In this document: positions 7,477 to 35,562 of the stretch, in pieces
How positions within the stretch are numbered: position 1 is the first letter of the stretch
How the letters are laid out: each line of letters starts with the position of its first letter
Source of the DNA: an uncultured Solirubrobacterales bacterium
GTDB lineage: Bacteria; Actinomycetota; Thermoleophilia; Solirubrobacterales; JBBDJG01
Reading direction: 5' to 3'
Length of the DNA: 64,000 nucleotides
Assembly: GCA_963731895.1 (NCBI GenBank)
Contig: CAVSXO010000007.1
Location: forward strand, 324-64,323
The notes under the pieces: model-generated
The model's input: only the letters and a program-made list of their open reading frames with translations
What the model was told of the DNA's origin: nothing
Database searches by the model: none
Made by a program: the position numbers and the translations under genes

Positions 7477-7484
7477 CGTCGAGC

Positions 7485-12771: not shown

Positions 12772-12856
12772 GCCCGGTGCGACCCATGTCCGGTTTGTCC
12801 GTTCGAGTGGCCGGGTATCGATCCCATTCGAACATCGATGGGCGGTCGGAGGGTCC

Positions 12857-13252: not shown

Positions 13253-13326
13253 GCTCACCCGCCCGGGGCATCCCCGGTGGCGGTCCTGCAACAATCGGAC
13301 CAAAGACGGGTGCCGGAGATCGGGGA

Positions 13327-13709: not shown

Positions 13710-13710
13710 C

Positions 13711-14480: not shown

Positions 14481-14498
14481 CCGGCGCCGTGGCCGGCG

Positions 14499-14940: not shown

Positions 14941-15002
14941 CTCGCAGCATCGGGCGGCCAGCCTGGCGAGCCGCCGGTCGCGCCGGTTCTACGGTCGCTC
15001 GA

Positions 15003-15585
15003 GTGCTCGTCTGGATGGACCTCGAGATGACCGGGCTCGACCCGGACCGCCGACGTCATCGTCGAGATCGCCACCCTCGTCACCGACGACGAGCTCGACG
15101 ATCGTGGCCGAGGGGCCCGACCTGGTGGTCGCACCAGCCGCCCGAGGCCGCTCGCCGGCATGGAGGAGGTCGTGCGCGACATGCACACCCGCAGCGGCCT
15201 GCTCGACCGCCATCGCCGCGTCGACCATCACCCTCGAGGAGGCCGGCGCCGCAGACGCTCGCCTTCATCAAGGAGCACGTCCCCGAGGCCCGCACGGTGC
15301 CGCTGTGCGGCAACTCGATCGGCACCGACCGGCGCTTCCTCGCCAAGCACCTGCCCGAGATCGAGGACTACCTGCACTACCGCTCGGTCGACGTGTCGAC
15401 CATCAAGGAGCTGGCCCGGCGCTGGTACCCCGAGCGTGCTCGACGGCGCGCCGCGGAAGGCGACCAGCCACCGGGCCCTCGACGACATCCGCGAGAGCAT
15501 CGACGAGCTCCGCTTCTACCGGCGGACCGGCGTGCTTCCGATCACCGCACCGCGCCGGCTGACGCGACGCGCACTCCGCCGATAA
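15003..15585 (+). CDS. orn: oligoribonuclease; frame breaks
   Basis: GTG at 15003. Conserved blocks are [13 protein letters not shown] (DEDD exo motif I), [58 protein letters not shown] and [18 protein letters not shown]. Confidence 0.75.
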
Positions 15586-15838
15586 TCGCTTGACGCCTTG
15601 ACCGGGGTCGGGTCCGATGATCGGGCGCCCGGTCCACCCGGGCGTGGCGCACTCGCCGACCGACGCCCGATCCGAGGACCCGATGAGCACGCAGACCCGG
15701 CACCTACCAGAGAGCGCGGCACCGCCGCCGGTGCCGCGCGGCCCGCGCCGGTGCCGCCGCGTCGCTGCTCCCGGTGGTCCCGGTCGCCGGTCGCCACGAC
15801 GCTCGCCGTCCGTGGACCGCCAACCCGACCTTGCGGTG

Positions 15839-15880
15839 ATGGCCGTCCAAGCACGGCCTCACCCCTGCCCCACGGCCTGA
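15839..15880 (+). promoter_or_regulatory. candidate leader uORF in the whiB7-like 5' leader
   Basis: ATG 15839 to TGA 15880 encodes MAVQARPHPCPTA. It contains the hairpin GGCCGT-ccaagc-ACGGCC (15841-15858). The ACGGCC/GGCCGT hexamers recur and can pair alternatively with the left arm of the downstream terminator. There is no clear Shine-Dalgarno sequence. This is speculative. Confidence 0.25.
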
Positions 15881-15921
15881 GGAGGCGGTTCCCTGATAGG
15901 CGACAAGGCCAAGAACCTCCG

Positions 15922-15958
15922 AAGGCCGTCGGGATCTCCCGGCGGCCTTTCTGGTTTT
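15922..15958 (+). terminator. intrinsic terminator/attenuator inside the whiB7-like leader
   Basis: AAGGCCGTCGG-gatctc-CCGGCGGCCTT forms an 11-bp stem with one G-U pair. It is followed directly by TCTGGTTTT and ends ~90 nt upstream of the whiB start codon. Confidence 0.55.
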
Positions 15959-16047
15959 CGGCCCCGGTCCACCTGCACCACCCCGCCCACCTGACACCAC
16001 CACCCAACGACACACCGACACCACGAACACCGGGAAGGGGACCACCG

Positions 16048-16392
16048 ATGATCGCCCTGAACGACGACCTGCAGCACCGATCCGAGGACCGCAGCTGGTG
16101 GGCCGAGGCCCGCTGCAACGACGCGGCCGGCTCCATGGCCGGGCTGTTCTTCTCCGAGGAGCTGCAGGACATCGCCGCGGCCAAGCGCATCTGCGCCGAG
16201 TGCCCGGTGATGGTGCAGTGCCTCGAAGGGGCCCTCGCCCGGCGTGAGCCCTGGGGCGTCTGGGGCGGCCAGCTGTTCCTCAACGGGAGGATCCTGGCCA
16301 CCAAGCGGCGCCGGGGCCGGCCGCCCAAGGTCGCCCGTCCCGAGGACCAGCTGCCCGACATCCCCATCCCCGAGCACCTGCGCAGCGCGTAG
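16048..16392 (+). CDS. whiB7: WhiB-family regulator with C-terminal AT-hook (WhiB7-like)
   Basis: RBS GGGAAGGGG precedes the ATG at 16048. The Cys pattern is C-x25-C-x2-C-x5-C (ARC...ICAECPVMVQC). It has the EPWGVWGG turn and the C-terminal KRRRGRPPK, which closely resembles the WhiB7 tail. The frame is intact. A UvrD2-like helicase nearby echoes the whiB7-uvrD2 neighbourhood in mycobacteria. Confidence 0.8.
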   Translation: MIALNDDLQHRSEDRSWWAEARCNDAAGSMAGLFFSEELQDIAAAKRICAECPVMVQCLEGALARREPWGVWGGQLFLNGRILATKRRRGRPPKVARPEDQLPDIPIPEHLRSA

Positions 16393-16417
16393 CGCCCGCA
16401 GAAGGCGAATGGGTCCG

Positions 16418-16446
16418 TCCTGCCCCCGGCCGAGCATCGGGGGCAG
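16418..16446 (+). terminator. candidate terminator hairpin after whiB7-like gene
   Basis: CCTGCCCCCG-gccgagcat-CGGGGGCAGG is a perfect 10-bp stem starting 26 nt after the stop. It has no U-tract, as in the I-shaped hairpins common in high-GC actinobacteria. Confidence 0.45.
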
Positions 16447-16484
16447 GATGGAGCCCGCGACCGACGAGCCGACAGCCACCCGGG

Positions 16485-17120
16485 GTGCCCCGGTTGGACC
16501 GGCGCACGATCCTCGTCTGCGTGGCGATCGCCGCCGTCGCCGCCATCGGTGTCTTCGTCCTCCTGCTCGACGTCCTCGCCGACGACACGGGCACCGCCGC
16601 CGAGAACACGGCCTCGGACGACGACCAATGGGTCCGCCGAGCACCGGGTCCGAGACCGGGTCCGAGACACCGGGTCCGAGGGCACCACGTCGACCTCGTC
16701 GAGGCCACCGAGGCGCCCGACGTGGCGTTCACCCGCTTCGACGGCAGCACCGCGAAGCTCTCGGACTACCGGGGCCAGAAGCTGGTGGTCAACTTCTTCG
16801 CATCCACGTGCATGCCCTGCAAGAAGGAGATGCCCGCCCTCCAGCGGGTGCACGAGCGCCTCGGCGACGACGTCACCTTCATGGGCATCGCCGTGCAGGA
16901 CGACCCCGAGGCCGCCGAGGACCTCGTCGACACGACCGGGGTCAGCTACGACCTCGGCCAGGACCCCCAGGAACGCTGTTCCACGGCTTCGGGGGCGTCG
17001 TGCTGCCCGTGACCGCCTTCGTGGCCGAGGACGGCACGGTGATGGACCTCCACGCCGGCGAGCTGACCGAAGCGGACGAGCACCCAGAAGGTCAGCGACA
17101 AGCTGCTCGCCGGCGGCTGA
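16485..17120 (+). CDS. TlpA/ResA-like thiol-disulfide oxidoreductase; frame breaks near the 3' end
   Basis: It has a membrane anchor and a thioredoxin fold with CxxC (FFASTCMPCKKEMP). The C-terminal third continues in the frame of ORF 16244..17371 (TLFHGFGGVVLPVTAFVAEDGTVM). The last part lies in a third frame (KVSDKLLAGG, stop at 17120). Confidence 0.7.
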
Positions 17121-17121
17121 C

Positions 17122-17983
17122 GTGGACGGCGGGCGCTCGGCCTGGCGCTCACCGCCGGGATGCTGGCGACGGTGAACCCCTGCGGGCTGCCGATGCTGCC
17201 CGCCTACCTCAGCTTCTTCATCTCGGACGACTCCGACGACGACCGCGCCGCCCTTCCCCGCCGTCCTCCGGGCCGTGGTGGTGGCCCTGTTCGTGGCCCT
17301 CGGCTTCCTGGCCGTCTTCGCGATCGCCGGTGGGCTGGTCAGCTGGGTCACCCACGACGTCTACGAGGTGACGCCGTGGGTCACGGTGGCGGTGGGCGCG
17401 GTGCTGCGTCGGGCTCGGGATCGCGATGCTCCTGGGCCGGCAGATCAAGGTGCCGCTCCCCCGGCTCGACCGGGGCGGCCGCACCCGCGGGCTGGGCTCG
17501 ATGTTCGTCTTCGGGGTCTCGTACACGATCGCGTCGATCTCCTGCACGCTTCCGGTCTTCCTCGCCCAGGTGTCCTCGACCCTCGGCAGCGACCTCCGGC
17601 GGGGCCTGCTCGTCTTCGGTGCCTTCGCGGCGGGGATGGCCCTCGTGCTCGTGGCCCTGTCGGTGTCGCTGGCCCTCGCCCGCACCGAGGTCGTCCACGC
17701 CCTGCGGCGCAGCCTGCCCGTGATCGGGCGGGTCGCCGGCGCGTTCCTGGTGCTGGCCGGCGCCTACCTCGCCTGGTTCGGCGTCTACGAGATCCGCGAC
17801 TCGGTCGAATCCGACCCGGCCATCGACCGGGTGACGGGCTGGTCGGGCGACCTCGCCGAGATCCTCGACGGCCGGGCCTACGCCATCGCCGGGGTGCTGG
17901 CGATCGCCATCGTGGCGATCCTGGCCGTGGCCTACGTGCGCTCGGCCAGGTTCTCGAGGAGCTCGAGCAGCTCCTCCCCGTAG
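17122..17983 (+). CDS. ccdA: cytochrome c biogenesis protein CcdA (DsbD-family transmembrane thiol transporter); frame breaks
   Basis: Conserved pieces are LALTAGMLATVNPCGLPMLPAYLSFF, FVALGFLAVFAIAGGLV and FVFGVSYTIASISCTLPVFL. They lie across ORFs 17160..17723, 17275..18336 and 17426..17983. Confidence 0.7.
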
Positions 17984-20624
17984 AGGTCGAGCTTGGCCGG
18001 GCCGATGCCCGAGATCCGCGACAGCTCGACCATGGACGATGGGCGCTTCACCACGATCGCGGCCAGGGTGGCGTTCGACAGCACCACGTAGGCCGGCTTG
18101 GCGATCTTCGATGCTGTGGCCGTCCGCCAGCCGGCGAGGGCGTCGTAGACCACTTCCTGTGCGGTCTCGGTGAGCTCGTCGCGTGGCGCCGCCTTCTTCT
18201 TGTCCGGCGCCACCTGGCCGCGCGGCGGAGCGATGACCTGCGGCTGGTGGGGCGCGGTGCCGTCGAGCTCGCCGAGGAAGGGCGACGGGCGGGCTCGCGT
18301 CGCCCAGCACGACGACCCGGTGCCGGGCGCGGGTGAGCGCGACGTGGAGCACCCGCCGCTCGCTCCTCGACGTCGTCGGCGAGGCGGTGCGGCAGCGACC
18401 CGGCGGTGACGCCGACGACGGCGACCCGATCCCACTCGCGCCCCTTCACCCGGTGCACGGTCGACAGCGTCACCCCGCCGTCGGCGCTGGTCGCGGCGCA
18501 GCGGCCGCCGCAGCCACGGCTCGAAGCCGGCCGGATCGGGGTGCAGGTCGGCCACCTGGAGCAGCGCCTCGAGGTCGTCGAGCTGGCTGCGACCCCTCGC
18601 CGCCCTTCGAGCCGGTCGAGCAGCTCCATGGCCTCGCCCAGCCCGACGCCGTCGCGACCTCCTCGAGCACCTGCGCGGGTGGTGCCCGACGCGCGCCGCC
18701 TCGATCGACCAGCGGCGAGGTCGTCGGCGAGGCGCTCGACCTTGTCGGCCACCTTGGCGTCGTCGAGCCGGGTGGCGATGCGCCGGGCCCCTGCACGTCG
18801 AGCCCGCGGCGGAACCACTTGGTGATCCAGTTGGGCAGGCCGCGGCTCGGCCGCCGGTAGACCTCGGCCAGGTCGTCGGGATCGAGCGGCGAGGGGCTCG
18901 GCGCGATGCGCAGGTAGGCGAGCGCCGCCCGCACGCCGGTGCGGTCGAGCACGTCGGCGCGCGAGCGATGGAGCTGCACCGGGACGCCCGCCTCGACCAG
19001 CGCCACGTGCGGGGCCAGCAGCAGCGAGCGGACCCGCGGCCAGCACCGCGATCTCGGCCGGCTCGGCGCCGTCCTCGAGCCAGCCCTCGCACCTCCTCGA
19101 CCAGGCGCTGCGCCGCCGGCGGCTCGGGCCGGACCGACGAGCGCCTCGGGGCCGGATCGGCGGCGCGGGCCCGGGCCGGATCACCTTCGCCACCCGGCGT
19201 GGTTGTAGGACGAGCAGCGTGGCCGCGCCGCGTCGACGACCGGCGCCGGGCAGCGGTAGTTGACCTCGAGCGGGTGGTCGCCGGCGCGCCGGGAAGAGCG
19301 TGGCGAAGTCGATGAGGAACCGCGGGTCGGCACCGGCGTGGCCGTAGATCGCCTGGTCGTCGTCGCCGACGCCGAACACGTCGAGCCCGGGAGCGGCGCA
19401 CCAGCCGCACGAGCAGGACGTGGGCGGGGGTGAGGTCCTGGAGCTCGTCGACCAGCAGGTGGCGGTGGGCGGCCTGCATGCGCCGCCGGAGGGCGCCGTC
19501 GGCGAGCAGCGCCTCGACGGCGCGCGTACGACCTGCTCGTCGAAGTCGACCACGCCCTTGCGGCGAGCTCGGCGCGGTAGCGGGTCGAACAGGTCGCCGA
19601 AGCCCGGGACGTCGCCCCGCTCCTGCTCGACCTCGCGCGGGGTCGCGCAGGCCGAGGCGGATCGGTGGTGAGCGCCTCGAGGTAGGGGCCGAGCGGGTCG
19701 GTGTTGGCCCGGCGGGCGACGGGACGGCGCCAGCCGGTCGAGGATGCGCCGCACCTCCCGCTCGTCGATGACCGGCGGCGCCCCGCCCTCGTGGTCGGCG
19801 AGCACGCCGTAGGCGAGGCCGTTCAGGGTCTGGACGCGGGCGCCGAGGCCGGCGGTGCGCTCGGCCATCTCGTCGCGGGCCTTGACGTTGTAGCGCGACC
19901 GCGAGGAGCGGCGTCGCGCTCCTAGCCCCGGTCGGCGACGAGGTGGCGCAGCCGCTCGGTGAGCACCCGGGTCTTGCCCGAGCCGGCCGGGGCGATGATC
20001 CGGGCCGGACCGGCACCGTGGGCGACCGCCGCCAGCTGGTCGGGCGCGAGGTCGGCGGTCGGCGCGATCGGAGGCGGGGCCACCGCCAGGCGACCGAGCT
20101 CGATCGAGTCGACGTGGACCACCGCATGCCCGCCCACGGCCTCGGGCGCGAAGGGGCACGCGGGGTCCGCCGTCGACCCAGGCCGGCCGGCCGTCGGTCA
20201 GCACCAGGTCGGCCGTTCCGTCGGGGCTCGGCGCCGCGCCGCAGCCGGGCCGCCTTGGTGGCCCACCACCAGCGGGCTCGTACCGGTCCGGGCGTCGTAG
20301 GTGTTGGCCCAGACCAGGAAGTGCAGGCGGTCGCCCCACACCTCGTGCTCGGGGCCGAGCGTCCAGGGTTCGACCCGCCACTCCTCGGGCTCGCGGAAGC
20401 GCGGACGGGTCGACCGCCAGCCGCACGACGAAGGGCCGGCGGGTGGCCCAGAGGTCGTGGAGGGTGGCCACGGTCGGGCCGGGATCGGACAGCACCGCCT
20501 CGTCGATGGTGACGACGGGGGCGTCCTGCCAGGGCGGCGGCACCGGATCGCCGGCTCCGATCACCACCCCGCGGCCGAGCGCGACGGGGCCCGGCAGGGT
20601 CGCGATCGGGGCGTCAGCGGGCAC
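17932..20624 (-). CDS. UvrD/Rep-family DNA helicase with C-terminal HRDC-like domain (UvrD2-like); many frame breaks
   Basis: Motif I is IIAPAGSGKTRVLTERL (ORF 19922..20137). Motif III is DVFGVGDDDQAIYGHAGADPRFL and motif VI is LHVALTRARHRVVVLGD. The HRDC-like tail reads KPAYVVLSNATLAAIVVKRPSSMVELSRISGIGPAKLDLYGEELLELL. About 190 aa of unassigned N-terminal extension precede motif I. Confidence 0.7.
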
Positions 20625-20705
20625 CTGAGCACCCTACGCAGCGGCCGTGACCCACCCTTCTCGTCCCTGCGGAAGGCCGCCGGGGTCGCCGGTAGGGTCG
20701 CCGCC

Positions 20706-21643
20706 ATGGACCTCCGCATCTTCGTCGAGCCCCAGCAGGGCGCCTCCTACGAGACCGCAGCTGGCCGTGGCCCAGACGGCCGAGGAGCTCGGGCTTCGAC
20801 GCCTTCTTCCGCTCCGACCACTACCTCAAGATGGGCGCCGGGCTCCGGCGAGCCGGGCCCGACCGACTCGTGGGTCACCCTCGGCGCCATCGCCCGCGAG
20901 ACCTCGACGCATCCGCCTCGGCACGCTGGTCACCTCGGCGACCTTCCGCCTGCCGGGCCCGCTCGCCATCTCGCGTCGCCCAGGTCGACGCCATGAGCGG
21001 CGGCCGGGTCGAGCTGGGCATCGGCGCCGGCTGGTTCGACGACGAGCACACGGCCTACGGCATCCCGTTCCCGCCACCGGTGAGCGCTTCGACCGGCTCG
21101 AGGAGCAGCTCGCGATCATCACCGGGCTCTGGGAGACGCCGGCCGGCTCGACGTTCACCTTCAAGGGCAAGCACATGGCGGTGGTCGACTCCCCCGGCCC
21201 TGCCCAAGCCGGCGCAGCGCCCGCGCCCGCCGATGATCATCGGCGGCTTCGGCCCCAAGCGCACGCCCCGCCTCGTGGCGCCCTACGCCGACGAGTTCAA
21301 CACGCCGTTCCTGCCGGTCGAAGGACGTCCCAGGCATCGCACGCCAACATCGACGCCGCCTGCGAGGCCATCGGCCGGGACCCGGCGACGGTCCTCCGCT
21401 CGTCGGCCGTCGTGGTCTGCTGCGGCAGCGACGAGGCCGAGGTCGCCCGCCGGGCCGCGGCGATCGGCCAGGAGCCCGACGAGCTGCGGCAGAACGGCGG
21501 TGGCCGGCACGCCGGCGGAGGTGGTCGACGCGCTCGGCCGCTACGCCGAGGTCGGCATCACCCGCGCCTACCTCCAGGTGCTCGACCAGACCGACCTCGA
21601 CCACATCCACCTCCTCGCCGCCGAGGTCCTCGGGAAGGTCTAG
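20706..21643 (+). CDS. LLM-class F420-dependent oxidoreductase (Rv1855c-like); frame breaks
   Basis: Conserved blocks are [143 protein letters not shown] and the C-terminal [14 protein letters not shown]. Confidence 0.8.
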
Positions 21644-21782
21644 GCGGTGACGGTCTTAGCGAGGCTGTGGAGCGCCAGCCGGAGCGAGCGCTGCCGGTGC
21701 CACCCGGATGGCGAAGCCCGACCTGCGAGGGGCCCGGCGGAGCCGGGAGGGCGGCGGCGGAGGTAGGGCGGGGGTCGCAGTG

Positions 21783-22383
21783 TCATGGCATGAGGCGCTG
21801 GATGTCCCACCCGGTGTCGGTGCGGGTGTAGCGGAAGCGGTCGTGGAGGCGGCTGGGCCGGCCCTGCCAGAACTCGATCTCGTCGGGCACGAGGCGGTAC
21901 CCGCCCCAGTGCGGCGGCCGGGGCACGGCGTCCGCCGTAGCGGGCCTCGGCCTCGGCCCACCGGCGTTCGAGGTCCTCGCGGTCGGCGATCGGCCCGGCT
22001 CTGGTCGGAGGCCCACGCGCCCCACTGGCTCCCGGGCGGTCGGCTCGCGAAGTAGGCGTCCGACTCGACCGCGTCGCACCTGGTGCACGGGGCCCACCAC
22101 CCGGACCTGGCGTTCGAGCTCGAGCCAGCCGAAGCACGAGCGCGGCCTGCGGGTTGGCGGCCAGCTCCTCACCCTTGCGGCTCTGGTAGTTGGTGAAGAA
22201 CACGAACCCGTCGTCGACGCCCTTGAGCAGCACGAAGCGGGCCGACGGGCGCCCGTCGCATCGGCGGTGGCGAGCGCCACGGCGGTCGGTTCCTTCGGGG
22301 ATGTCGCCTCCCAGTCGGCGAACCACGTGCGCGAACTGCTCGAACGGATCGGCCGCGAGATCGGCGCGCCGCAGGCCGTCCAC
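21783..22383 (-). CDS. pdxH: pyridoxamine 5'-phosphate oxidase; frame breaks
   Basis: GTG at 22383 lies 2 nt after the upstream stop. Conserved blocks are [52 protein letters not shown] and [30 protein letters not shown]...IQRLMP. Confidence 0.7.
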
Positions 22384-22385
22384 GG

Positions 22386-22704
22386 TCAGGGGTTCTCGAC
22401 CCTCGCGGCGATGTAGGTGAGGTGCTGCATCACGTCGGGGTCGGCGGCCATGCCGAAGGCCGACACGAGCGTGCCCCGCACGTTCGCTCTCGGGTAATGC
22501 AGGCCGAACACGACCATCTCGTCGCCCGGGTCGCTGTCGCCCTCGAACCGGTACATCCGCTCGACCACCGCCTCGTCGAGCCCGCACGGAAGTGTCGACG
22601 CCCGTGAAGCGCAGCACGCCGCCGTCGAGCAGGGTGACGGCTGGCGGCGTAGCCCTCGGCTCGAGCATGCGGGTGGCCTCGGTGACGGTGTCGGGCGCTT
22701 CCAT
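22386..22704 (-). CDS. hypothetical protein (~106 aa); one frame break
   Basis: RBS GGTGGAGGG precedes the ATG at 22704 ([17 protein letters not shown]...). One frame change occurs at ~22,590, followed by ...[21 protein letters not shown]...IAARVENP. I recognise no family. Confidence 0.4.
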
Positions 22705-22727
22705 GCCCTCCACCTTGCCACTCGGGC

Positions 22728-24833
22728 GTCAGAGATCGAGACCGAGCTGCCTGGCGGGGCGCTCGCCGGGCGGGCTCGGGCACGGCCACCGGGTGCTCGT
22801 GGCCGGTGAGGTGGGCGCTCTCCCGCGGCTCGGCGCTGCACCCGCCGGCCCGGCGGACCGCTGCGTGCACGATCGCCGCGACTCGCCGCTGGTCCGCCTT
22901 GGGCGCGTTGGCCCGCGGGTAGATGCGCTCGGTCCGCTCGGCCACGTCGGGATGGCTCGCCCGCAGCGACGCGAGGTAGTGCTCCTTCACGCCCGGGCGC
23001 AGGTGGAGCAGGATCGGCGAGATCGACACCGCGCCGGCCTCGACGCACGCCGTCGCCACCGCCTCGAGCTGGTCCGGCCGGTCGGAGAGCCCGGGCAGGA
23101 TCGGCGCGACGAGCACGCCGCACGGGATGCCGGCCTCGTTGAGCGTGGCGACCGCCTCGATCCGCCGGCGCGGGTGCGGCGTGCCGGGCTCGGTCGCCCG
23201 CCACACGTCGCTCGTCGAGCGTGCCGATCGAGAGGTTGGCCCGCACGTCGGTGCGCTCGCGGCCTCGACGAGCAGGTCGAGGTCGCGGAGGACGAGCGTG
23301 CGACTTGGTGAGGATCGAGAACGGGTTGCCGCGCTCGCCGAGCACCTCGATGATCCCGCGCGTCAGCCGGTACTTGCCCTCGGCGCGCTGGTACGGGTCG
23401 GTGTTCGTGCCCATCGCGATGTGGTGCCCGGCCCACCGGCGCGGCGAGCAGCTCGCCCGCAGCCGCTCCACCGCGTTGACCTTCACGACGATCTTCGGTC
23501 GAAGTCGCCGCCGGGTCGAGGCCCAGGTACTCGTGCGTCGGCCGAGCGAAGCAGTTGTGGCTCACCACGCCGTTGGCGATGAAGTCGCCGGTCCCGGTCG
23601 TGATGTCGTACATCGGGATCTCGATGCCGAGCGGCTCGACGGCGACGACCTGCCGCCGGCGCGTCGCTTCATGGCCCGCCCGAGGATCGTCCGCTTGCGG
23701 GCGTCGCCGGATCGACGGTGAGGAAGAACCGCAGCCGTCTCGGGGAGTCCGCCGAGGATGCGGACGTTGCGCACGCCGTTCGGCGTGGCAGGCTCCAGCA
23801 CCGAGCCGGAAGCTCGAGCCGTCGAGCGACGGTCGATCCAGTCGAGGATCTCCGGATCGCTGTTGCTGATCCGGATGACCTCGGCCCAGATGACCCTCGG
23901 CGTCGTAGATGCCGGCCAGGAAGCCCTTGGTCCAGCTCTCGCGAGCGCAAGCGGGCCACGCGATCAGCGACTCGATCGCCTCGACTGCCGCCGTGCCGGC
24001 GTGCGGATCGCCTGCATCGTCGCGTGGCGTCTCGGCCGCCGAGAAGTCGAACCGCGTCGCCTCGACACCGAAGTTCGCGAGGAACGCCTTGCGTTCGGTC
24101 GAGCGGCTCGAGGTCGTCGAGCGCGAGCCGGAACTGGTGCTGGACGTCCAGGTACGGCCGCTCGGCCGCTCGTACTCGGTGGCCGAGGTGGCCGTCGCCG
24201 CGGATCATCCCGCAGAGGTAGCCGCGGCGGTAGTCGTCGTCGATGCTTCGGCGGCTGCGGCGAAGCGCCCGATGCCGAGGAGCGCGTTGTTCGCGTGAGA
24301 TGCGGGCGCTGCGCGGGCCTGCTCGGTGCCGGTCACGTGCTTCCAGCCTCGCTCGGTGAGGAACCGGTGGTCGCCGCTGGCGATCAGCTCGGTGCCGTCC
24401 TCGAGCGTGACCCGGTAGGCGGCTTCGACGTCGCCCAGTGGTCGAGAACCGGCGTGGCCACGTAGCGGCGGTACCATCCGTCACGCGCTCGGTCCCGAAG
24501 ACGCGGTCGCCGACCCGCAGGTCGGCGATCGGCGATCCGCCCGTCGGCCATGAGCACCGGGGTATCGGGCGCCGCGCAGTACGTGCAGGCATGGCTGCAT
24601 CCTCGGTACGCGTTGATCGTGAAGCGGAACGGCAGGTGGCTGGCGGCGCCTTGACCTCGTTGATGATCCGGCGGGCCCGCACGTGGAGGAACTCCAGGCC
24701 GCGGTACTCGCCGGGGCCGGCCTGCCACCCCTCGGTGCGAAGAGACGAGCCCTGCGCCGAGGGTTCCTCGGCCCGGGTCCAGCGCAGGTGGGCCGGTCCG
24801 TGAAGTGGGGGGCGTGGTCGCGCCACGCGCCAC
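22728..24833 (-). CDS. Rv2578c/SplB-like radical SAM protein interrupted by an intein; many frame breaks
   Basis: The N-extein reads [19 protein letters not shown] ... [15 protein letters not shown]. The C-extein reads [13 protein letters not shown] ... [37 protein letters not shown] ... and ends [13 protein letters not shown] (stop at 22728). The start near 24833 is approximate. Confidence 0.8.
23554..24578 (-). mobile_element. intein with LAGLIDADG homing-endonuclease domain inside the radical SAM gene
   Basis: It starts at the Cys codon 24578-24576 ([13 protein letters not shown]) and has a block-B-like ASGDHRFLT. The LAGLIDADG motifs are [10 protein letters not shown] (~24,200) and [14 protein letters not shown] (~23,920). 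It ends [12 protein letters not shown] (Asn at 23556-23554), followed by the Cys+1 at 23553-23551. Confidence 0.8.
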
Positions 24834-24854
24834 TCTACGACGAACACCAGTTCG

Positions 24855-25005
24855 CTACGACAGCAGGTTCTTGGACATCCAGCCACTCCTTGGCCACGTC
24901 GGCGGGATCGTCCTTGTCGATGTTCGGTACGGGCGTTCCAGCTGATCAGGTCTTCCGTGGTCAGCTTCGATGACAGCTCGTTGATCGCATCGGTGAGGTC
25001 CAGCC
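24855..25005 (-). pseudogene. 3' fragment (last ~50 codons) of a glycine-betaine/proline-betaine-type ABC substrate-binding protein gene
   Basis: LDLTDAINELSSKLTTEDLISWNA, then after a frame change ...DKDDPADVAKEWLDVQEPAVVAN, with a TAG stop at 24857-24855. The 5' part of the gene is absent because the sequence switches to glpF at ~25,000. Confidence 0.55.
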
Positions 25006-25012
25006 GCCTACG
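24995..25012. other. breakpoint between the high-GC actinobacterial segment and the lower-GC exosortase segment
   Basis: The glpF frame loses homology after ...APIVGG. The substrate-binding-protein fragment starts in another frame within the same ~18 nt (GTAGGCGGCTGGACCTC on the minus strand). Composition, taxon markers and frame-break density all change here. Confidence 0.75.
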
Positions 25013-25713
25013 ATCGGCGCGACCACGGGAATCCAGGCGTAGCCCCAATCCGAATCGCGCTTCCCAGATATCGGAAGCAGGAAATGCGCGAGGCGAGGCC
25101 CGAGATCGCGTGCGGGATTGATCGCATAGCCGGTGGGCCCGCCCAGCGACAAACCAACACCAAGCACCAGACCGCCAAGCAACAGCGGCTGCAGTCCACT
25201 GCTGAAGACGACCGACAGATCGATGTCGCCCGGCGCCGCCAGCATCTGCGCGTTGGCCGCGATCGCGAGGACGGCAAACATGAATACGCCGGTCGCGATC
25301 GTCTCGGTCATGAAATTCGCCGCGGGGCGACGAATCGCCGGTCCTGTGCAAAAGACGGCGAGTTTGAGATTCGCGTCCTCGGTGACGGACCAGTGAGGCA
25401 GGTACATCAGCCAGACCAGCGTCGCTCCAATAACGGCACCACCCATTTGCGCCGCGATGTAGCCGGGCACATCGACCCACGGAAACGCACCGATCGACGC
25501 GAGCGCCACGGTGACCGCTGGATTGAGATGTGCGCCACTCAGTCGCCCGACCGCGTAAACCGCGATCATCACGGCAATCGCCCATCCGAAGGCGATGACG
25601 ATCCAGCCGCTCTTCTCACCCTTGGAACGGGCCAGCAGGACGTTGGCGACCACACCGTCGCCAAAGAGAATGAGCAATGCCATGCCAATCGCTTCAGCTG
25701 TGTAGTTGATCAT
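25005..25713 (-). CDS. glpF: aquaglyceroporin (MIP family), 3'-truncated at the breakpoint
   Basis: ATG at 25713 (MINYTAEAIGMALLILFGDG). The NPA boxes are HLNPAVT and AINPARD. It reads cleanly to ...WGYAWIPVVAPIVGG and then lacks the usual last ~20 residues. The written ORF runs on to 24961 through foreign sequence. Confidence 0.8.
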
Positions 25714-26279
25714 AGTGAGGCAGGTGGATTGAAGAGTTACCGGGGCTCGTGATGATAACGCCCGAGTTCTTCCCAATGAACTGTCGAGCACGGCAACCTC
25801 AACTGTAACGAGGGTGCGGGTGCAGGTGAGAGAGGCCGTTTTCCTCCGCGGATTCCACCGCGAAATCTCGCGGTCATCGATCGCGCCGCTCACGAGCGCA
25901 CGTGGCAACGAGACCTGCAGGGCAGACTGACCTCCGCCGCGGTCACCATTTGGACGCGGCAGTCGCGAGCACGAAGGCCCGCGGGCGTCAACTGGAACGA
26001 TGGAACAGGCCTACTGCTGCGCTTGTCGTCGCGTCGTTGTGCCTTTATTGTCTAGCTTCCTACACGCCGGGATTTCTCGCCCCTACGGCAGACTCAATTT
26101 CGTTATTGCGTAACATCGCGGAAAATTTGCGCGACGACAATCCACATCAGCTTACATATTGTTCCACCCACCGCCTCCTCCGGCATCAATACTGCACTAG
26201 AGCCGCCGACGCGAGCGCGGACTGGTCCGCCGCTCGCCTCACACATCGGGTGTGAATATGTCAGACAGTCAGTTGTCTC

Positions 26280-27386
26280 TTGCGGCTAAGTACTCCCGCT
26301 GTTCGATCGCTGTACCGGCAGATTGATCGGGCGGCGCGTTCCGACGCCAAGGTGCTCATCACCGGTGAAAGCGGAACGGGTAAAGAAGTCATGGCGCGTC
26401 TGATTCACGAACGCAGCCCAAGACGAACGTCTGCCCTCACGACCGTCAATTGTGCAGGCATCCCGGACTCGCTGCTCGAGTCGGAATTGTTTGGCTACCG
26501 TCGCGGCAGCTTTACAGGGGCTGTTCGAGACCGGCAGGGACTCCTCGAGAAAGCACATGGCGGAACGCTGTTCATGGACGAAGTGGGCGAGATGAGCGGG
26601 CGGATGCAGGGTCTGCTCCTGCGATTCCTTGAGACAGGTGAGATCCAGCCGCTCGGGAGTGAATCGGCGGGACGCCACGTGGACGTCCGCGTGATTGCCG
26701 CAACGAACCGCCAACTCGAACACGACGTCACATCGCAGTCGTTCCGTCTTGACCTGTACTACCGTCTCAAGGTCGTTCACGTTCACATCCCTCCCCTGCG
26801 GCAACGCCCAGACGACATTCTTCCGCTGCTCGATCACTTCATGACGTTGTACTGCGAGCGCTACCAGGTCCCGAAGCGAGAGCTGTCGGACCCGGTGGTC
26901 GACTGCCTCAGGAACTGCGCCTGGCCGGGAAACATCCGACAGCTGAAGAACGTTGCCGAGCGTCTGGTCGTGTGCGCCGAGGATGGGCCCATCACGGTTG
27001 ATGAGCTCCCACTCGACCTCCAGGAGCCGCTGTCCCACGAGGCCGACGATCGCCCGGCCGAACCGGCGCGCGTCGACGCGCTCTTCGATCGGATGATCAA
27101 CGGGGGCGAGTCGTTCTGGCTGGCCGTTTACGGACCGTTCATGCTGCGCGATCTTACGCGTGACGATGTAAGACTTATCGTCCGGAAGGGATTGCTCAAG
27201 AGCCACGGCAACTACATGCGAATGCTGCAGACGTTCAACATGCCTGCAGATGACTACAAACGCTTCCTGAACTTCCTGCGGAAGCACCAATGCCAGCTGA
27301 GCTTTCAGCCGTTCCGTTCTGATGCGCCGGTTCACCTCGCGCCGCCCATCGACCCTCAGCCTGCTCGATTGGCTGAGGCTGAGTAA
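26280..27386 (+). CDS. sigma54-dependent transcriptional activator without N-terminal sensory/receiver domain (paralogue 1)
   Basis: The AAA+ domain begins within ~10 residues of the N-terminus. It has Walker A GESGTGKE, GSFTGA (a GAFTGA-loop variant), Walker B TLFMDEVGE, VRVIAATN and LDLYYRLKVV. The C-terminal Fis-like HTH reads GNYMRMLQTFNMPADDYKRFLNFLRKH. The track start is TTG 26280. An ATG at 26258 is one base out of frame, so the true start is unresolved. Confidence 0.8.
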   Translation: MRLSTPAVRSLYRQIDRAARSDAKVLITGESGTGKEVMARLIHERSPRRTSALTTVNCAGIPDSLLESELFGYRRGSFTGAVRDRQGLLEKAHGGTLFMDEVGEMSGRMQGLLLRFLETGEIQPLGSESAGRHVDVRVIAATNRQLEHDVTSQSFRLDLYYRLKVVHVHIPPLRQRPDDILPLLDHFMTLYCERYQVPKRELSDPVVDCLRNCAWPGNIRQLKNVAERLVVCAEDGPITVDELPLDLQEPLSHEADDRPAEPARVDALFDRMINGGESFWLAVYGPFMLRDLTRDDVRLIVRKGLLKSHGNYMRMLQTFNMPADDYKRFLNFLRKHQCQLSFQPFRSDAPVHLAPPIDPQPARLAEAE

Positions 27387-27396
27387 CGACACCGTC

Positions 27397-27419
27397 GTCG
27401 CCGCCGGGCGCGACTTTTT
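27397..27419 (+). terminator. weak hairpin plus T5 after activator 1
   Basis: GTCGC-ccgccggg-GCGAC (5-bp stem) is followed by TTTTT and begins 11 nt after the stop at 27386. Confidence 0.25.
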
Positions 27420-27497
27420 CGAGCGCGACCGACCGATTCGGTCTGAATTCCGCGAAATCTTTCGGAAATCGACCGAACGAGCGGGTTCCGGTAGTGG

Positions 27498-27513
27498 TGG
27501 CGAACGGATTGCA
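27498..27513 (+). promoter_or_regulatory. candidate sigma54 (-24/-12) promoter upstream of activator 2
   Basis: TGGCGAACGGATTGCA gives GG-N10-GC with a TTGCA -12 element (consensus TGGCAC-N5-TTGCW). It lies 74 nt upstream of the ATG at 27587. The RBS GGAGG lies at 27573-27577. Confidence 0.45.
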
Positions 27514-27586
27514 GCAGCCGGTGAGCGCGCAAAGCACGCGCGCTCTTTCTCCGCAGCGTGGAGTACGCACCCGGAGGCCGTGTCCC

Positions 27587-28664
27587 ATGAGTGAGAAGCG
27601 AGGTCGAGAGTTGATCGGGAGCAGCCAGCAGATAAAGGCATTGCAGAACCAGGTCCGCCGGGTCGCGGCCAGCGATGCCAAGGTACTGATTACAGGCGAC
27701 AGTGGTGTAGGTAAAGAGCTCGTGGCGCACGCGCTTCACAGTGAGGGCACTCGCGCCAACCAGCGCTTTGTTCCGGTCAACTGCGCCGGCCTGCCCGAGA
27801 CGCTTCTGGAATCGGAGTTGTTCGGACACGTCAAAGGAAGCTTCACCGGCGCGTTCCGCGACCAGGCTGGCAAGCTCGAACAGGCCCATCTCGGCACGGT
27901 GTTCCTCGACGAGCTCGGTGAAATGACACCTCGTATGCAGTCGCTGCTGCTGCGGTTCCTGGAGACCGGGGAGTTGCAGAAGGTCGGTGGCGATCAGCTC
28001 GGGTCAAGGTGGATGTCCGCGTCATCGCGGCGACCAATCGCGACTGCGGGCCATGGTCCGACAGGGCACGTTCCGCGAGGACCTCTACTACCGAATCCGC
28101 GTCATCCATCTGCACGTACCTCCGTTGCGCGAACGGACGCAGGACATTCCTGAGCTCGTGGAGTATTTCCTGGCGCAGTTCACCGCGGGCACATCTCTGC
28201 TCACGCGCGGCATCTCTCCGGAGGCCATGGCGCTCCTCCTGCAACACACCTGGCCCGGCAACGTGCGCGAGCTCGAGAACGTGCTCGAACGCCTCGTCGT
28301 CACCGGTTCGCACGAGATGATCCAGGTCGACGAGCTTCCGCCAGAGATACTTCCTCAAGCCGAGCAACGACCGCTTGCCACCGCGTCCTCGATGACGGTC
28401 GCAGACGAGCTCTACAAGGAACTGACACAGGAAGGCAAGTGCTTCTGGACCTCGGTGTATCCGCTCTACATGCAGCGCGAGATCACTCGCGGCAACGTGC
28501 GCGACCTTGTACGCAAAGCGCTCGAAGAAACGTGCGGCAGCTATCGCGTCGTCACACGAATGTTCAATATGCAGGACGCCGATTACAAACGGTTTTTGAA
28601 TTTTCTACGCAAGCACGATTGTCAGGTTCCATACCGGAACTATCGTCTGCAGTCCCTGCAGTGA
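27587..28664 (+). CDS. sigma54-dependent transcriptional activator without N-terminal sensory/receiver domain (paralogue 2); two frame breaks
   Basis: MSEKRGRELIGSSQQIKALQNQV starts the protein, with Walker A GDSGVGKE, GSFTGA and TVFLDELGE. It breaks at ~28,005 (VDVRVIAATNRD lies in the frame of ORF 28009..28320). It breaks again at ~28,045 (LRAMVRQGTFREDLYYRIRVIHLHVPPLRER lies in the frame of ORF 27987..28664). The C-terminal end matches paralogue 1 (DADYKRFLNFLRKHDCQV). Confidence 0.8.
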
Positions 28665-29346: not shown

Positions 29347-30702
29347 GTGGCACCAGCGGGGCCGAGTTACGGAGGAATACCCGACGTGTATTCACTTTGT
29401 GTGGCAAGTGCGGTCACGGTGCTGCTCGCCTCGAGCGTGCCCGCCATTGTGCATGCCCAGGAAGTGCCTGAACGCCGGCCCACTCGTCCACTCTTTGGCG
29501 CGCCCGATCCACGCGGTGAGAGCGAAGGCGGAATCTCGGTGAGCGGAGCACTCTTCGGCTCCTACGACGACAACCTTCTCCTCAACAGCCAGGGATCGGC
29601 AACGCGACCGCCCCCGGGTGCCGTCCTGGCCGAGCCGATCGCGGGAGCAGCAGCCGGATACGATTCGGCGCTCTTCCTCAAACTGCCGAGCGAACAACCG
29701 ACGTTTGAGGTCAGCGTGGCCAGTGCGGGCCGCTACCTTCCCGAGTTCAACGACTTCATCCCTGGCCGGCAGATGGCTGAAGCGTCCTCGTCCGTGTCGG
29801 GGACGCCATGGCGGGACACGACGCTGCGCGCGACTGGCTCGGGGCGCTATTCCTTGAACGCTCCTCCCTTCCTCACTGCCGACTCGCTTTATGACGTCGA
29901 CGTCGATCTGCCCGACGGCGGGGATTCCGTCCGCCTTCGAGAGACCAACGATATTCGCGGAGTGGTCGAGCTCGAGCGCGAGTGGGGTGGAAGCAAGTCA
30001 GTGGGGGTCCTTGGGGGCATTCACTCCTCGCAGATCGACGGTGGAGATCGGCACGAGCTCTACGACGTGGGCGCGAGGTTGGGCGTCAGGATGGGCCGTT
30101 ATGGCGCGTTTCGGGCGAGCTACGTCCGCCAGGATGTCGATCGCGGCACGTCGCAGTACGTCGTTCATCACCTCAACATCGGCGGTGACTACGTGCGACC
30201 ACTCTCGGCCTCGCGGCGGGCCTTCATCGCATTGAGTGGCGGCTCAGCCGCGCTCGAATCGCGAGACGCGCTGCGTATGAGTGCCATCGGCGATGCCGAC
30301 TTCTGGTACGAGTTCAAGCAGTCGTGGGTCGGTGCGCTGCGGTATCGCCGCGGCATCACCTTCATCGACGAGGTCGACGACCCGCTCCTGTCGGATAGTG
30401 TCGGCGCCGAACTCACGGGGCTGCTGTCCCCGCGCGTCGACTTCCTCGCCTCAGGATCGTTCGCGCACGGCGTCGTAGGAGTGGACAGCGGCCAGACGTA
30501 CCAGATGTACGGGGCGCGCGCACAGCTTCGTTACGCGCTGTCGCGAATGATGGCGCTGTACGGGGAGTACACCCTCTATCAGGACCAGTTCCCGGAATCG
30601 GTTCCACTCACCGGGGGAATCCCCTCGGCATTCAATCGACAGGCGGTACGGGCGGGACTGACGGTCTCGACCCAGCTCGTCGGGTTGGGACGAAGAAACT
30701 GA
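29347..30702 (+). CDS. putative outer-membrane beta-barrel protein (PEP-CTERM-system-associated, uncharacterised)
   Basis: GTG at 29347 with a signal-like N-terminus (...LLASSVPAIVHAQ). About 420 aa show alternating-hydrophobic strand-like segments. Its position between the export protein and the chain-length determinant matches the conserved hypothetical OM protein of such loci. The fold is an inference. Confidence 0.45.
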   Translation: MAPAGPSYGGIPDVYSLCVASAVTVLLASSVPAIVHAQEVPERRPTRPLFGAPDPRGESEGGISVSGALFGSYDDNLLLNSQGSATRPPPGAVLAEPIAGAAAGYDSALFLKLPSEQPTFEVSVASAGRYLPEFNDFIPGRQMAEASSSVSGTPWRDTTLRATGSGRYSLNAPPFLTADSLYDVDVDLPDGGDSVRLRETNDIRGVVELEREWGGSKSVGVLGGIHSSQIDGGDRHELYDVGARLGVRMGRYGAFRASYVRQDVDRGTSQYVVHHLNIGGDYVRPLSASRRAFIALSGGSAALESRDALRMSAIGDADFWYEFKQSWVGALRYRRGITFIDEVDDPLLSDSVGAELTGLLSPRVDFLASGSFAHGVVGVDSGQTYQMYGARAQLRYALSRMMALYGEYTLYQDQFPESVPLTGGIPSAFNRQAVRAGLTVSTQLVGLGRRN

Positions 30703-32246: not shown

Positions 32247-33011
32247 ATGTCCAAGGCCCACTCCGCTCCGATTCCGCTGTCACAGGTCATGGACGCTCCT
32301 CGTCCCGATCCCACCGCTACCCGTCCGCCCGTGAAGATGCGTCCCGGCGGCGAAGCGCGAAGCAACGCAACCTGGCAGGAGTTCGACGCCAGCTACGACG
32401 TCAGCGATGCGTATTGCCGGTTGGCGGCTCAGCTCCATCAGGTCCAGCAGACCCGGCCACTGACCACTGTGCTGATCGCGAGCGCGCTGCCAGCTGAGGG
32501 CAAGTCGCTTACGGCAGCTAACCTCGCGCGCGCGCTGAGCGAGGCCTACGGAAAGCGGGTCGTCCTCATCGATGCCGACCTGCGCCGACCGTCGCTCCAC
32601 TCGCTCTTCGGTACCCGCATGAGTCCGGGCCTCAAGGATTGCCTCGCAGGCAACAGCCCGCTCCATGCGGCCCGGTTGTCCAGCACGCTCTCGCTCGTGC
32701 CGGCCGGTACACCCGAGGCCAATCCCCTGGAACGACTGAGCTCGGGCGGTTTGCGCGCGCTGCTGCTGGAGCAGGCGCAACGGGCGGACTGGGTCATCAT
32801 CGACGCGCCCCCGCTGGCCGCCTGTCCCGACGCAGGCGTGCTCGCCGGCCTCGTGGACGGAGTGGTGGTCGTTGTGCGTGCAGGCCAGACCCCGCTGGCC
32901 GCGGTGGAATCCGCCGTCGCGGCGCTCGGCCGCGAGCGGATTGTCGGCGTCGTCCTGAACCGATCGACGTCGATTGCCACGCGGTATCGATATCCGGCTC
33001 GAAAGGCGTAG
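32247..33011 (+). CDS. BY-kinase-type ATPase (CpsD/CapB-like, exopolysaccharide tyrosine autokinase family)
   Basis: Walker A-like SALPAEGKSLTAANLA, Walker A' VVLIDADLRRPSLH and Walker B WVIIDAPPL are present. It has no TM segment, so it is split from the chain-length determinant. The tail has only two Tyr (ATRYRYPARKA). Confidence 0.75.
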   Translation: MSKAHSAPIPLSQVMDAPRPDPTATRPPVKMRPGGEARSNATWQEFDASYDVSDAYCRLAAQLHQVQQTRPLTTVLIASALPAEGKSLTAANLARALSEAYGKRVVLIDADLRRPSLHSLFGTRMSPGLKDCLAGNSPLHAARLSSTLSLVPAGTPEANPLERLSSGGLRALLLEQAQRADWVIIDAPPLAACPDAGVLAGLVDGVVVVVRAGQTPLAAVESAVAALGRERIVGVVLNRSTSIATRYRYPARKA

Positions 33012-33015
33012 CGCC

Positions 33016-34406
33016 ATGCTCACGTTTCTTTTACAGAGCATAAATGCCCGCGCGACGATGCTGATCGGGCTCGAATCGGTCCTGATCGTCGGATCACTCA
33101 TCGGCACGTCGATCGTTGTCGGTGGGACAGAGGCCTGGTCAGTCGTCGGTACGGCCGGCGGATTTCTGCGCGTCGCACTGGTGGCGCTGGTGTGCCAGAT
33201 CTGCCTGTACTACACCGACCTCTACGATCTCCGGATCATCGCGAACCGCCGCGAGCTCTTCGCCCGGACGTTTCACTCGCTCGCCGCGGCCTCGATCATC
33301 CTGGCGGTCGTTTACGCGCTGCTTCCGGACCTCGGCGTCGGTCCTGGCGTCGTGATCGCCGCCACGCTCGTCGTCATGGCCACGATTCCGGGCTGGCGGG
33401 TGGTCTTCGAGTCCGCCGTCCATCGCGTCTCACCACGGGAGCGGCTCGTCATCGTCGGGACTAACTCCGCGGCCGTCGGGCTGGCCTCCGAGCTGACCGA
33501 GCGTCGCTACTCGCTGGGACTGGAGATCGTCGGTTTCGTCACGGCCGGCGCCGCTCACACGCCCGGACCGGGGCCTTCCGCGTGCTCGGCGACATCGCTG
33601 ACATTCCGGCGATCATCCGCGAGCATCGAGTCGATCGGGTGGTCGTCAGCCTCGCGGATGCGCGCGGAAACCTGCCGATGGCACAGCTGCTCGACATGAA
33701 GATGCGCGGTGTCACGTTCGACTATCTCGCGTCCGTCTACGAGCGCTACACCGGAAAGATCGCGATCGAGAACCTGCGCCCCAGCTGGCTCATCTTCTCG
33801 GCCGGGTTCCGGGCAACGCCGCGCCTGCTCGCGCTCAAGCGTCTGGTCGACATCGTGATCTCGCTGGTGGGTCTTGTGGTGACTGCCCCGTTGATGTTGC
33901 TCGTCGGGTTGGCGGTGAGGCTGTCGTCTCCCGGGCCTGCCCTGTATCACCAGCAGCGCGTCGGGGAACGCGGCCGGGTGTTCACGGTCCACAAGTTCCG
34001 CTCGATGCGGACCGATGCCGAGGCCAGCTCCGGCGCTGTCTGGTCCCGCGAAGGCGATACACGCACGACAACGGTCGGTCGATTCCTACGGGCGGCACGT
34101 CTCGACGAGCTCCCACAGCTCTGGAACATCCTGCGCGGTGACATGAGCCTCGTGGGTCCCCGGCCCGAGCGTCCGGAGTTCATTCAGCAGCTGACCGAGC
34201 AGATCCCGTACTACGGACAGCGACACATCGTGAAACCCGGCCTCACCGGCTGGGCCCAGGTTCGCTACACGTACGGCTCGTCGGTCGAGGACTCGATGGA
34301 GAAGCTGCAGTACGACCTCTTCTACATCAAGAACATGTCGCTCGCCATGGACCTGCTAATCGTGCTGAGCACCGTCAAGACCGTGGTGTCTCGGCGAGGT
34401 ATCTGA
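33016..34406 (+). CDS. priming sugar-phosphate transferase (undecaprenyl-phosphate hexose-1-P transferase family); one frame break
   Basis: It has N-terminal TM helices and the linker LVIVGTNSAAVGLA, with a break at ~33,570. The bacterial sugar transferase domain follows: KRLVDIVISLVGLVV...VHKFRSMR...DELPQLWNILRGDMSLVGPRPERP...KPGLTGWAQV. Confidence 0.85.
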
Positions 34407-35562
34407 TGCCCAGGTCCGCGCCACTGACCGTCGTCCACGTCGTCGCATCGCTCGAAGTCGGCGGACTCGAGCGCGTCGTGCTCGACCTGGCGACACACGC
34501 CGACCGCACGCGCATCGCGCCGCGGGTAGTGTGCCTCGACCACCCTGGTGCCCTGGCATCACGGTTCACCGACGCCGGCATACCGGTCGAGTGTGTGCCC
34601 CACGCGAGCGGGCGGGATGGGAGCGCGGATCTTCCGTCTTGCCCGGTTACTCCGAGAGGCCAGCGCTGACGTGATGCATGCGCACAACGTCAAGTCGCAC
34701 CTGCACGGTGCCCTGGCCGCGCGCCTGGCTGGTGTGCCGGTCGCCGTGAGCACCAAGCATGGGCGGAACTTTCCAACCAGTCCGCGCGGCCAGATCGCCA
34801 ATCGGCTGGCGTGCCATCTATGCAGTGACCTCGTCGGCGTCTCGAGCGATTGCGCCGCGATCTGGCACGACGTCGAGTCGGCCAATGCCGCCAAGGTCTC
34901 GGTGATCACCAACGGCATCGATATCGATGCGTTTCCCTACTGGTCCGGGCCGGTCGATGAACCTCCCAGGGCCGTCAGCGTCGCGCGTCTCAGCGCTGTC
35001 AAGGATCCGCTGACGCTGCTCCGGGCGGCCAGGCGCGTAGTCGATCGTGAGCCCGGTTTCCGGCTCGATCTCGTCGGCGACGGCCCCTTGCGGGCCGAGG
35101 TGGAAGCGACCATCGATCGGTTGCGTCTCGGCCGTGCTGTACGCGTGCGCGGCAACCTCGATGACGTGGCCTCGGCGCTGAGCGGCGCGAGTTTCTTCGT
35201 CCTGGCCTCGACCAGCGAAGGCGTGTCGCTCACGTTGCTGGAAGCGATGGCAACCGGGCTGCCGGTGATCGCGACCCGTGTGGGTGGGACACCTGAAGTG
35301 GTCTCGCACGGAACGACCGGATTGCTGGTACTCACCACGCTCACCCGAGGAACTCGCGGACGCGATGCTCTGGATGCTCAGGCAGCCGGATGCCTGCCGA
35401 CGGATGGGGCAAGAAGCCAGACGCCGCGTCGAGGAGCGATTCAATCTGCGTCACACCGTCGACGCGTACGAGCAGATGTACTTGCGAGCGTTCGACACAC
35501 AGCAGCCGCCGGACGGGGCGGACGCCCGAGCCACAGACCGCGTACGAGGCATAACGCTGTGA
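34406..35562 (+). CDS. GT4-family glycosyltransferase; two frame breaks
   Basis: Conserved blocks are VVHVVASLEVGGLERVV, HAHNVKSHLHGA and EGVSLTLLEAMATGLPVIATRVGGTPEVVSHGTTGLLV. Breaks lie at ~34,600 and ~35,330. The true C-terminus lies in ORF 35278..35562 (PRSPEELADAMLWML...). Confidence 0.8.

Follow-up and report, generated by a model that had tools for sequence, protein, structure and literature searches.

A probable artefactual join of Acidimicrobiia-like and Vicinamibacterales-like DNA within one 64-kb sequence

At position ~25,003 of the window (the whole stretch of DNA that we analyzed, 64,000 nucleotides long), actinobacterial, Acidimicrobiia-like DNA switches to acidobacterial, Vicinamibacterales-like DNA with no transition. 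Two minus-strand genes are cut and abut one another there, an aquaporin gene running from 25713 to 25003 and then the remnant of an opuAC gene running from 25002 to 24855. Judged from the sequence, the join is almost certainly an artefact and not a biological structure. Taking all artefact routes together, from a chimeric read or assembly to plain concatenation of contigs, we are highly confident that one of them would account for it; a chimeric sequencing or assembly product, whose halves would never have been contiguous in a cell, is the route that we somewhat favor.

Results

Two genes are severed and abutted at ~25,003

An earlier note on this DNA had reported an abrupt join at 24995-25012 that truncates a gene on each side, and this proved to be real and correctly placed. 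Base-by-base comparison set 25003 as the last aquaporin base and 25000 as the first certain OpuAC base, a switch of ~3 bases that severs one gene per side. In blastn alignments of ten aquaporin relatives, DNA homology ended at 25003/25004, the exception being one distant relative for which it ended at 25013. From these two comparisons we delimited a junction zone, which has no strand, at 24998 to 25008. There is no filler at the join, and any microhomology (possibly the bases GGCG) amounts to a few bases at most.

The right border lies in a MIP/GlpF-type aquaporin gene (25003-25713, minus strand), of which 237 codons are present and the last 12 codons and the stop are missing. Its translation contains both NPA boxes (HLNPAVT and AINPARD) and matches Pfam MIP (PF00230, E=1.2e-36) over profile positions 11-217 of 222, which places it in the MIP family with an incomplete 3' end. 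The reading stops at ...APIVGG, and relatives of full length have 249 aa and finish with ...APIVGGVIGAQLFKAVGF. The gene had thus been read correctly from 25713 down to ...APIVGG, with its NPA boxes, as an aquaglyceroporin; the number of residues lost, put at ~20, is 12 by comparison with these 249-aa relatives. A scan of one genome per GTDB species found its closest relatives among Vicinamibacterales/Acidobacteriota MAG proteins, at 82-85% amino-acid identity and none of them a 100% match; synteny in that scan did not extend past the aquaporin.

The left border lies in the 3' remnant (~46 codons, 24855-25002, minus strand) of a gene for an OpuAC (glycine-betaine-type) substrate-binding protein. 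From 25002 downward its frame reads (R)LDLTDAINELSSKLTTEDLISWNA and, after a one-base shift (a +1 frameshift) at ~24922, it continues ...NIDKDDPADVAKEWL. A second frameshift probably follows ...AKEWL, which would make the TAG at 24857-24855 the likely native OpuAC stop. The homology agrees with the previous reading of this segment as a fragment of a betaine-type binding protein, in another frame, with its stop at 24855.

We compared this region with L081 (JGI Ga0577625_0001283), the contig of the second-best match to the stitched radical SAM protein described below. Its genes encode, in order, an ABC ATPase, two successive permeases, an OpuAC protein of 313 aa, a radical SAM protein, a 105-aa protein, PNPOx (PdxH) and, on the opposite strand, a luciferase-like monooxygenase; opuAC is complete there, with the ATPase and permease genes before it and the radical SAM gene immediately after it. 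The left side of the window shows this order reversed and is syntenic over positions 19967-25000, where the L081 orthologues align at 75-82% amino-acid identity and nucleotide identity is ~85%. The remnant is identical at 37 of 40 positions to residues 268-307 of the L081 OpuAC (PF04069), and its assignment to OpuAC thus comes from both domain homology and native operon context in the L081 comparison. Residues 268-313 remain, and the first ~267 codons of the gene are absent from the window, as are the permease and ATPase genes upstream of opuAC. Between the OpuAC stop and the radical SAM start lie 16 nt in the window, compared with 21 nt in L081. Together, OpuAC identity and L081 synteny indicate that the remnant is the native 3' end of the left segment's own opuAC, and that the left segment ends inside that gene.

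As is looked for in a chimeric contig, then, native continuation is interrupted on both sides, with the aquaporin short of its tail and opuAC short of its 5' part and its upstream genes. The missing aquaporin tail and OpuAC N-terminal part were sought across the whole window and found nowhere else in it, which ruled out a rearrangement within the window.

The first complete gene left of the join, for an Rv2578c-like radical SAM protein (22732-24838, minus strand, from three-frame reading and alignment to L081), is interrupted by an intein and by six frameshifts in the exteins. The exteins match the L081 orthologue at 71/88 and 224/272 positions. Once stitched across the frame breaks and searched against a protein collection, the protein had its best matches in uncultured organisms (84-85% identity), and the named matches, lower in the list at 73-74% identity, were to Acidimicrobiia, Acidimicrobiales or Actinomycetota MAGs. 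The intein (~341 codons, 24578 to 23554 on the minus strand) splits the radical SAM motif CxxxCxxC, with the Y before it and the last C after it; it is preceded by ...GCSHACTY, ends in ...GVVSHN and contains a LAGLIDADG-type block. It is full of frameshifts in the window and is absent from the L081, L082 and L083 orthologues.

The join bears no mobile-element signature

All genes within ~4-5 kb of the join on each side were identified, and none encodes an integrase, recombinase or transposase. No unassigned ORF space adjoins the join, and the marks of an insertion sequence or transposon junction (transposase, terminal inverted repeats, target-site duplication) were not found there. Nor did we find those of an integrase-mediated genomic island, namely a border recombinase, direct repeats on the flanks and a tRNA or tmRNA to serve as target: neither tRNA nor tmRNA genes were found within the 64-kb window, searches for Rfam families gave no match, and 25,003 is bordered neither by a direct or inverted repeat nor by a duplication, the only repeats near the join being 16-mers at chance level. 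These tRNA, Rfam, repeat and gene-content searches bear out the earlier statement that integrase, transposase, tRNA and direct repeat are all missing at the join. Sequencing adapters gave only chance-level matches at the join.

The flanks belong to different phyla

The left segment (1-25002, no strand assigned) is Acidimicrobiia-like (Actinomycetota) chromosomal DNA by its radical SAM matches, its synteny with L081 and its marker genes. The Actinomycetota markers that had been proposed for this side, a WhiB-family regulator (at ~16.1-16.4 kb) and a mycothiol-type DinB protein (an MDMPI_N domain), were found, together with the luciferase-like monooxygenase, whose F420 dependence, as given in the earlier note, is putative; an ECF sigma factor and a Peptidase_S13 are encoded there as well. 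Metagenome loci anchored on WhiB showed only patchy synteny with the window at 40-80% identity; they revealed split genes at 11.8-15.5 kb but were too patchy for an error count. The right segment (25003-64000) is Vicinamibacterales-like (Acidobacteriota) DNA, and separate taxonomic searches with a protein from each side, along the lines of a check that had been suggested, gave these same two assignments. Up to the breakpoint, each flank keeps its native gene order and 80-85% protein identity to its relatives, which belong to different phyla.

Composition changes at the same place. In 1-kb windows GC is 0.70-0.77 on the left versus 0.60-0.67 on the right, with the step at the join, and GC3 in in-frame stretches of the left is 0.81-0.98, in agreement with the reported preference for G/C-ending codons on the left and lower GC on the right. 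The last ~150 bp of the left segment have a locally lower GC. GC-normalized tetranucleotide profiles, also suggested as a check, separated the two sides: the correlation inside the left segment was 0.93 and that inside the right 0.84, as against 0.73 from one side to the other, and it was 0.61 between the two 5-kb chunks that touch the join. By taxonomy, GC and tetranucleotide profiles alike, the flanks come from different organisms, as the flanks of a chimeric contig would.

Two phyla in one sequence could in principle also reflect a genuine, very recent junction, formed by illegitimate recombination that placed at least 25 kb of Acidimicrobiia DNA in a Vicinamibacterales chromosome or the reverse. 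Such an event would have destroyed the aquaporin 3' end and the 5' part of opuAC. Illegitimate recombination works without integrase or repeats, the possible few-base microhomology (GGCG) at the join would suit it, and only one border lies inside the window, so an island is formally possible. Neither GC nor tetranucleotides show any amelioration, however, mobility genes are absent, and there is no obvious route by which genes of a housekeeping type (PdxH, radical SAM, WhiB, sigma factors, a UvrD-like helicase) would pass between phyla in a stretch of 25 kb or more. We consider a genuine junction very improbable, a judgment to which the consensus quality described below also contributes.

A predicted exopolysaccharide locus occupies the right segment

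By its family matches and gene order, the right side is predicted to be a textbook XrtA/PEP-CTERM exopolysaccharide locus, at ~26258-63408. NCBIfam models TIGR03007, TIGR03018, TIGR03013, TIGR03088, TIGR04063, TIGR03097, TIGR02917, TIGR02602/TIGR03109 and TIGR02914 all found matches here. The genes encode two sigma-54 activators, a Wza-like exporter, an XrtA chain-length determinant (TIGR03007), a tyrosine kinase (TIGR03018), an EpsB_2 sugar transferase (TIGR03013), stp2 and stp3 glycosyltransferases, an O-antigen-ligase-like protein, PrsT, EpsI and an exosortase. The exosortase (62362-63408) scored 207.6 against an XrtA cutoff of 208 and scored high on XrtW and XrtD too, and any of the three may be its subtype. 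The PrsT-like TPR protein (59367-61688) matches positions 4-583 of 899 of TIGR02917 with 287 bits, below the cutoff of 312. A fragment of a PEP-CTERM-type protein follows at 63427-63999. The right side had been described as carrying diderm machinery, and NCBIfam supports this for the exosortase, the Wza-like exporter and PrsT; the proposed outer-membrane barrel (ORF 29347-30702) has no Pfam or NCBIfam match, and these models gave that candidate no support.

The locus order is the same, gene for gene, on contigs L165 and L166 and on a JGI contig, which carry relatives of the first sigma-54 activator (80-94% identity). The two tandem activators (~360-375 aa each, at 26258-28661) head the locus, and the pair is conserved in relatives; no receiver or other N-terminal sensory domain was detected in them. 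Between the aquaporin and the locus lies a 545-nt spacer (25714-26257) with the lowest GC of the window (0.52-0.58) and one orphan ORF (25902-26255) that has no family match. In the nearest relatives of the locus, on L164-L166 and one JGI contig, the first sigma-54 activator is preceded by a gene for a Peptidase_M28 or a hypothetical protein, and not by an aquaporin gene, which suggests that the aquaporin-side edge of the locus is variable. We rejected a second join between the aquaporin and the locus, as there is no truncation or compositional step there, though this is not a rigorous exclusion.

Frameshift density steps at the join

We counted frameshifts by local protein-to-DNA alignment allowing frameshifts, with the L081 orthologues as references on the left and the L165 orthologues on the right. 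A GC3-phase Viterbi segmentation was dropped, being too coarse for frameshifts ~100 bp apart. Left of the join there were 28 frameshifts in 3,734 bp, or 1 per 133 bp (one in the OpuAC remnant, six in the radical SAM exteins, one in the 105-aa gene, six in PdxH, ten in the luciferase-like monooxygenase and four in the next gene), and no in-frame stops in ~1,230 aligned codons. Right of it there were 7 in 10,864 bp, or 1 per 1,552 bp, again with no in-frame stops; all 7 fell in nine consecutive genes (10,153 bp), and the aquaporin had none in 711 bp, its four best DNA alignments (to L001, L002, L003 and L012) being free of gap openings. The left rate is 11.6 times the right (conditional binomial p = 2.4e-11), and the frameshift nearest the join lies 78 bp away on the left and ~1.3 kb away on the right.

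The high rate belongs to a low-quality block that runs from 5600 to 25002, ends exactly at the join and has ~1 frameshift per 133 bp where this could be measured. Its left boundary is approximate (~5.6-6.2 kb), which gives a length of ~19 kb with ~0.75% single-base indels, and at 6.8-7.4, 11.8-12.8 and 14.6-15.5 kb the homologues are broken up between frames. Up to ~5.55 kb, each of the domains GNAT, Peptidase_S13, ECF sigma and DUF4349 can be read entire in one frame, and splitting begins with an ABC transporter at 5561. Whole Pfam domains cover ~2.7 kb of the clean 1-5.5 kb, where ~20 frameshifts would be expected at the block's rate. This stretch has the same GC yet is clean, which argues that composition did not cause the frame breaks; the quality change at ~5.6 kb comes without truncation or composition change and so resembles a depth or polishing boundary and not a second join. 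The claim that the density of frame breaks changes at the join therefore holds, at 11.6-fold, with the qualification that the right has 7 of its own in 10.2 kb and that 1-5.5 kb on the left looks clean.

On the right, frameshifts lie at ~26288, 28002, 28046, 33551, 34607, 35331, 36639 and ~51130. They strike the N-terminus of the first sigma-54 activator and, in two events, the second activator. The TIGR03013 sugar transferase is split by a frameshift into ORFs 32974-33699 and 33582-34406, a MOP flippase into 51111-51728 and 50170-51150, and two GT4 genes are fused by a frameshift into one 702-aa ORF (34548-36656).

The left events, counted over 19967-25002, were 24 one-base insertions and 4 one-base deletions. 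The inserted bases appear random, are mostly G or C and are scattered outside homopolymers, and a test for association of frameshifts with homopolymers found none. Insertion-rich noise is more typical of PacBio CLR data, and nanopore data tend to homopolymer deletions; the left error spectrum, judged from the consensus, resembles PacBio CLR-type insertion noise more than nanopore noise. On the right the spectrum was 4 insertions to 3 deletions versus 24:4 on the left, a difference short of significance (Fisher p=0.12). Were it real, two separately produced sequences, and not one assembly, might be present. The right shows the same kind of single-base defect at a lower rate, which suggests that the whole window derives from a noisy long-read-type assembly.

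Dense frame breaks in the left block would also be expected if it were integrated actinobacterial DNA undergoing pseudogenization, a decaying foreign island. Against this, 28 frameshifts were accompanied by no in-frame stop in ~1,230 codons. Bacterial pseudogene decay is deletion-biased and proceeds by multi-base events, and here single-base insertions dominate (24:4). GC3 stays at 0.81-0.98, the 75-82% amino-acid identity to the orthologous locus is kept, and frameshifts also occur in evidently essential genes of the right-side locus, which indicates that the assembly itself is noisy. We give a decaying island almost no credence. Several features, namely the missing nonsense codons, the single-base insertion bias, the intact GC3 and the ordinary identity to orthologues, argue instead that the left frame breaks are residual sequencing errors in what would be a thinly covered consensus.

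The quality step bears on a genuine junction as well, for which it would have to be a sequencing-context effect. An 11.6-fold step is unexpected for one molecule at one depth, and composition was not its cause, given that 1-5.5 kb is of equal GC and clean. A ~12-fold quality change that falls at the same base as the change in phylum, GC, oligonucleotides and synteny, with cut genes on both sides, points away from one molecule sequenced at one depth. From consensus quality only, we infer that the step in frameshift density reflects a step in read depth.

Discussion

Taken together, the synteny of each flank, the truncations, the missing mobile-element signature and the quality step support the view, put forward in the earlier note, that a chimera or concatenation is a better account of this sequence than one replicon or a clean horizontally transferred island. 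For the chimeric product that we favor, the following course may be proposed. A mixed, soil-type community would have been sequenced and assembled by a long-read or hybrid method prone to errors. The left block would consist of a single read, or of very few, from a rare Acidimicrobiia organism, and the right side of many reads from a commoner Vicinamibacterales organism. A chimeric molecule or read, formed by blunt ligation or left unsplit, could then have given the assembler a bridge or overhang linking the two. The lack of adapter or filler at the join fits a blunt ligation chimera and proves nothing, and the clean 1-5.5 kb counts against a uniformly rare left organism as a simple account.

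Two contigs placed end to end without an N spacer, as in a contaminated bin, a pseudo-chromosome or the building of a data set, would give a similar picture. One might have been an Acidimicrobiia contig of poor coverage, the other a Vicinamibacterales contig with better coverage. Each of the border genes breaks off within its ORF, as genes do at contig ends; no filler, repeat or adapter lies between them; and the error rate, possibly also the error spectrum, differs between the sides. Scans of JGI metagenome contigs and IMG/VR did not find the junction 28-mer, which neither confirms nor refutes a chimera, and two window proteins had no exact match in a 153-billion-gene index; both results are in line with concatenation. 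However, binners that use composition and depth would seldom group a low-depth contig of 73% GC with a contig of 64% GC and higher depth, and the type of noise common to both sides, single-base indels, suggests a single assembly. Concatenation thus seems possible but on the doubtful side, and a chimeric sequencing or assembly product remains our preferred reading.

The biological value of the join is essentially nil, and its practical use is as a quality flag. With two phyla in one sequence, the window is unfit for taxonomy, pangenome work or inference of horizontal transfer across 25,003. At ~1 frameshift per 133 bp, gene calls in ~5.6-25.0 kb are unreliable, and oddities on the right, such as the "fused" 702-aa double glycosyltransferase and the split sugar transferase, flippase and sigma-54 activator, are products of error. 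A step in frameshift density can also serve as a proxy for a coverage step where reads are not at hand.

Among known systems, the window shares its abrupt compositional step and foreign gene set with a horizontally acquired genomic island. Unlike an island, it lacks an integrase, direct repeats, cargo-type genes and any tRNA or tmRNA that could be a target, and its "foreign" part is ordinary core-like chromosome whose sequence quality differs from that of the neighboring DNA. It also resembles a contaminated or chimeric MAG in mixing two phyla in one record. Tools of the GUNC and CheckM type score whole bins contig by contig, however, and unlike the MAGs that they flag, the window makes its switch inside one continuous sequence.

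Chimeric long reads, which arise in nanopore and PacBio libraries as ligation chimeras or unsplit consecutive molecules, offer a nearer parallel, as the window's join is likewise abrupt, with unrelated ends that abut directly and neither homology nor filler between them. In silico nanopore chimeras often keep an adapter at the join, and in this the window differs, its join having given only chance-level adapter matches. Many assembler chimeras arise at shared rRNA genes, insertion sequences or conserved genes, whereas the two sides of this join share nothing beyond a few bases, which points to a chimeric read or to concatenation and away from a repeat-induced graph error. Inter-genome misassemblies are a routine count in MetaQUAST-type benchmarks, and in a mock community inter-genome chimeric contigs numbered 2.6-22 per genome, depending on the assembler (PMC11261854). 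The window behaves like such a misassembly in that each flank maps to another organism, genes are cut at the breakpoint, no biological signature accompanies it, and sequence quality differs between its two sides.
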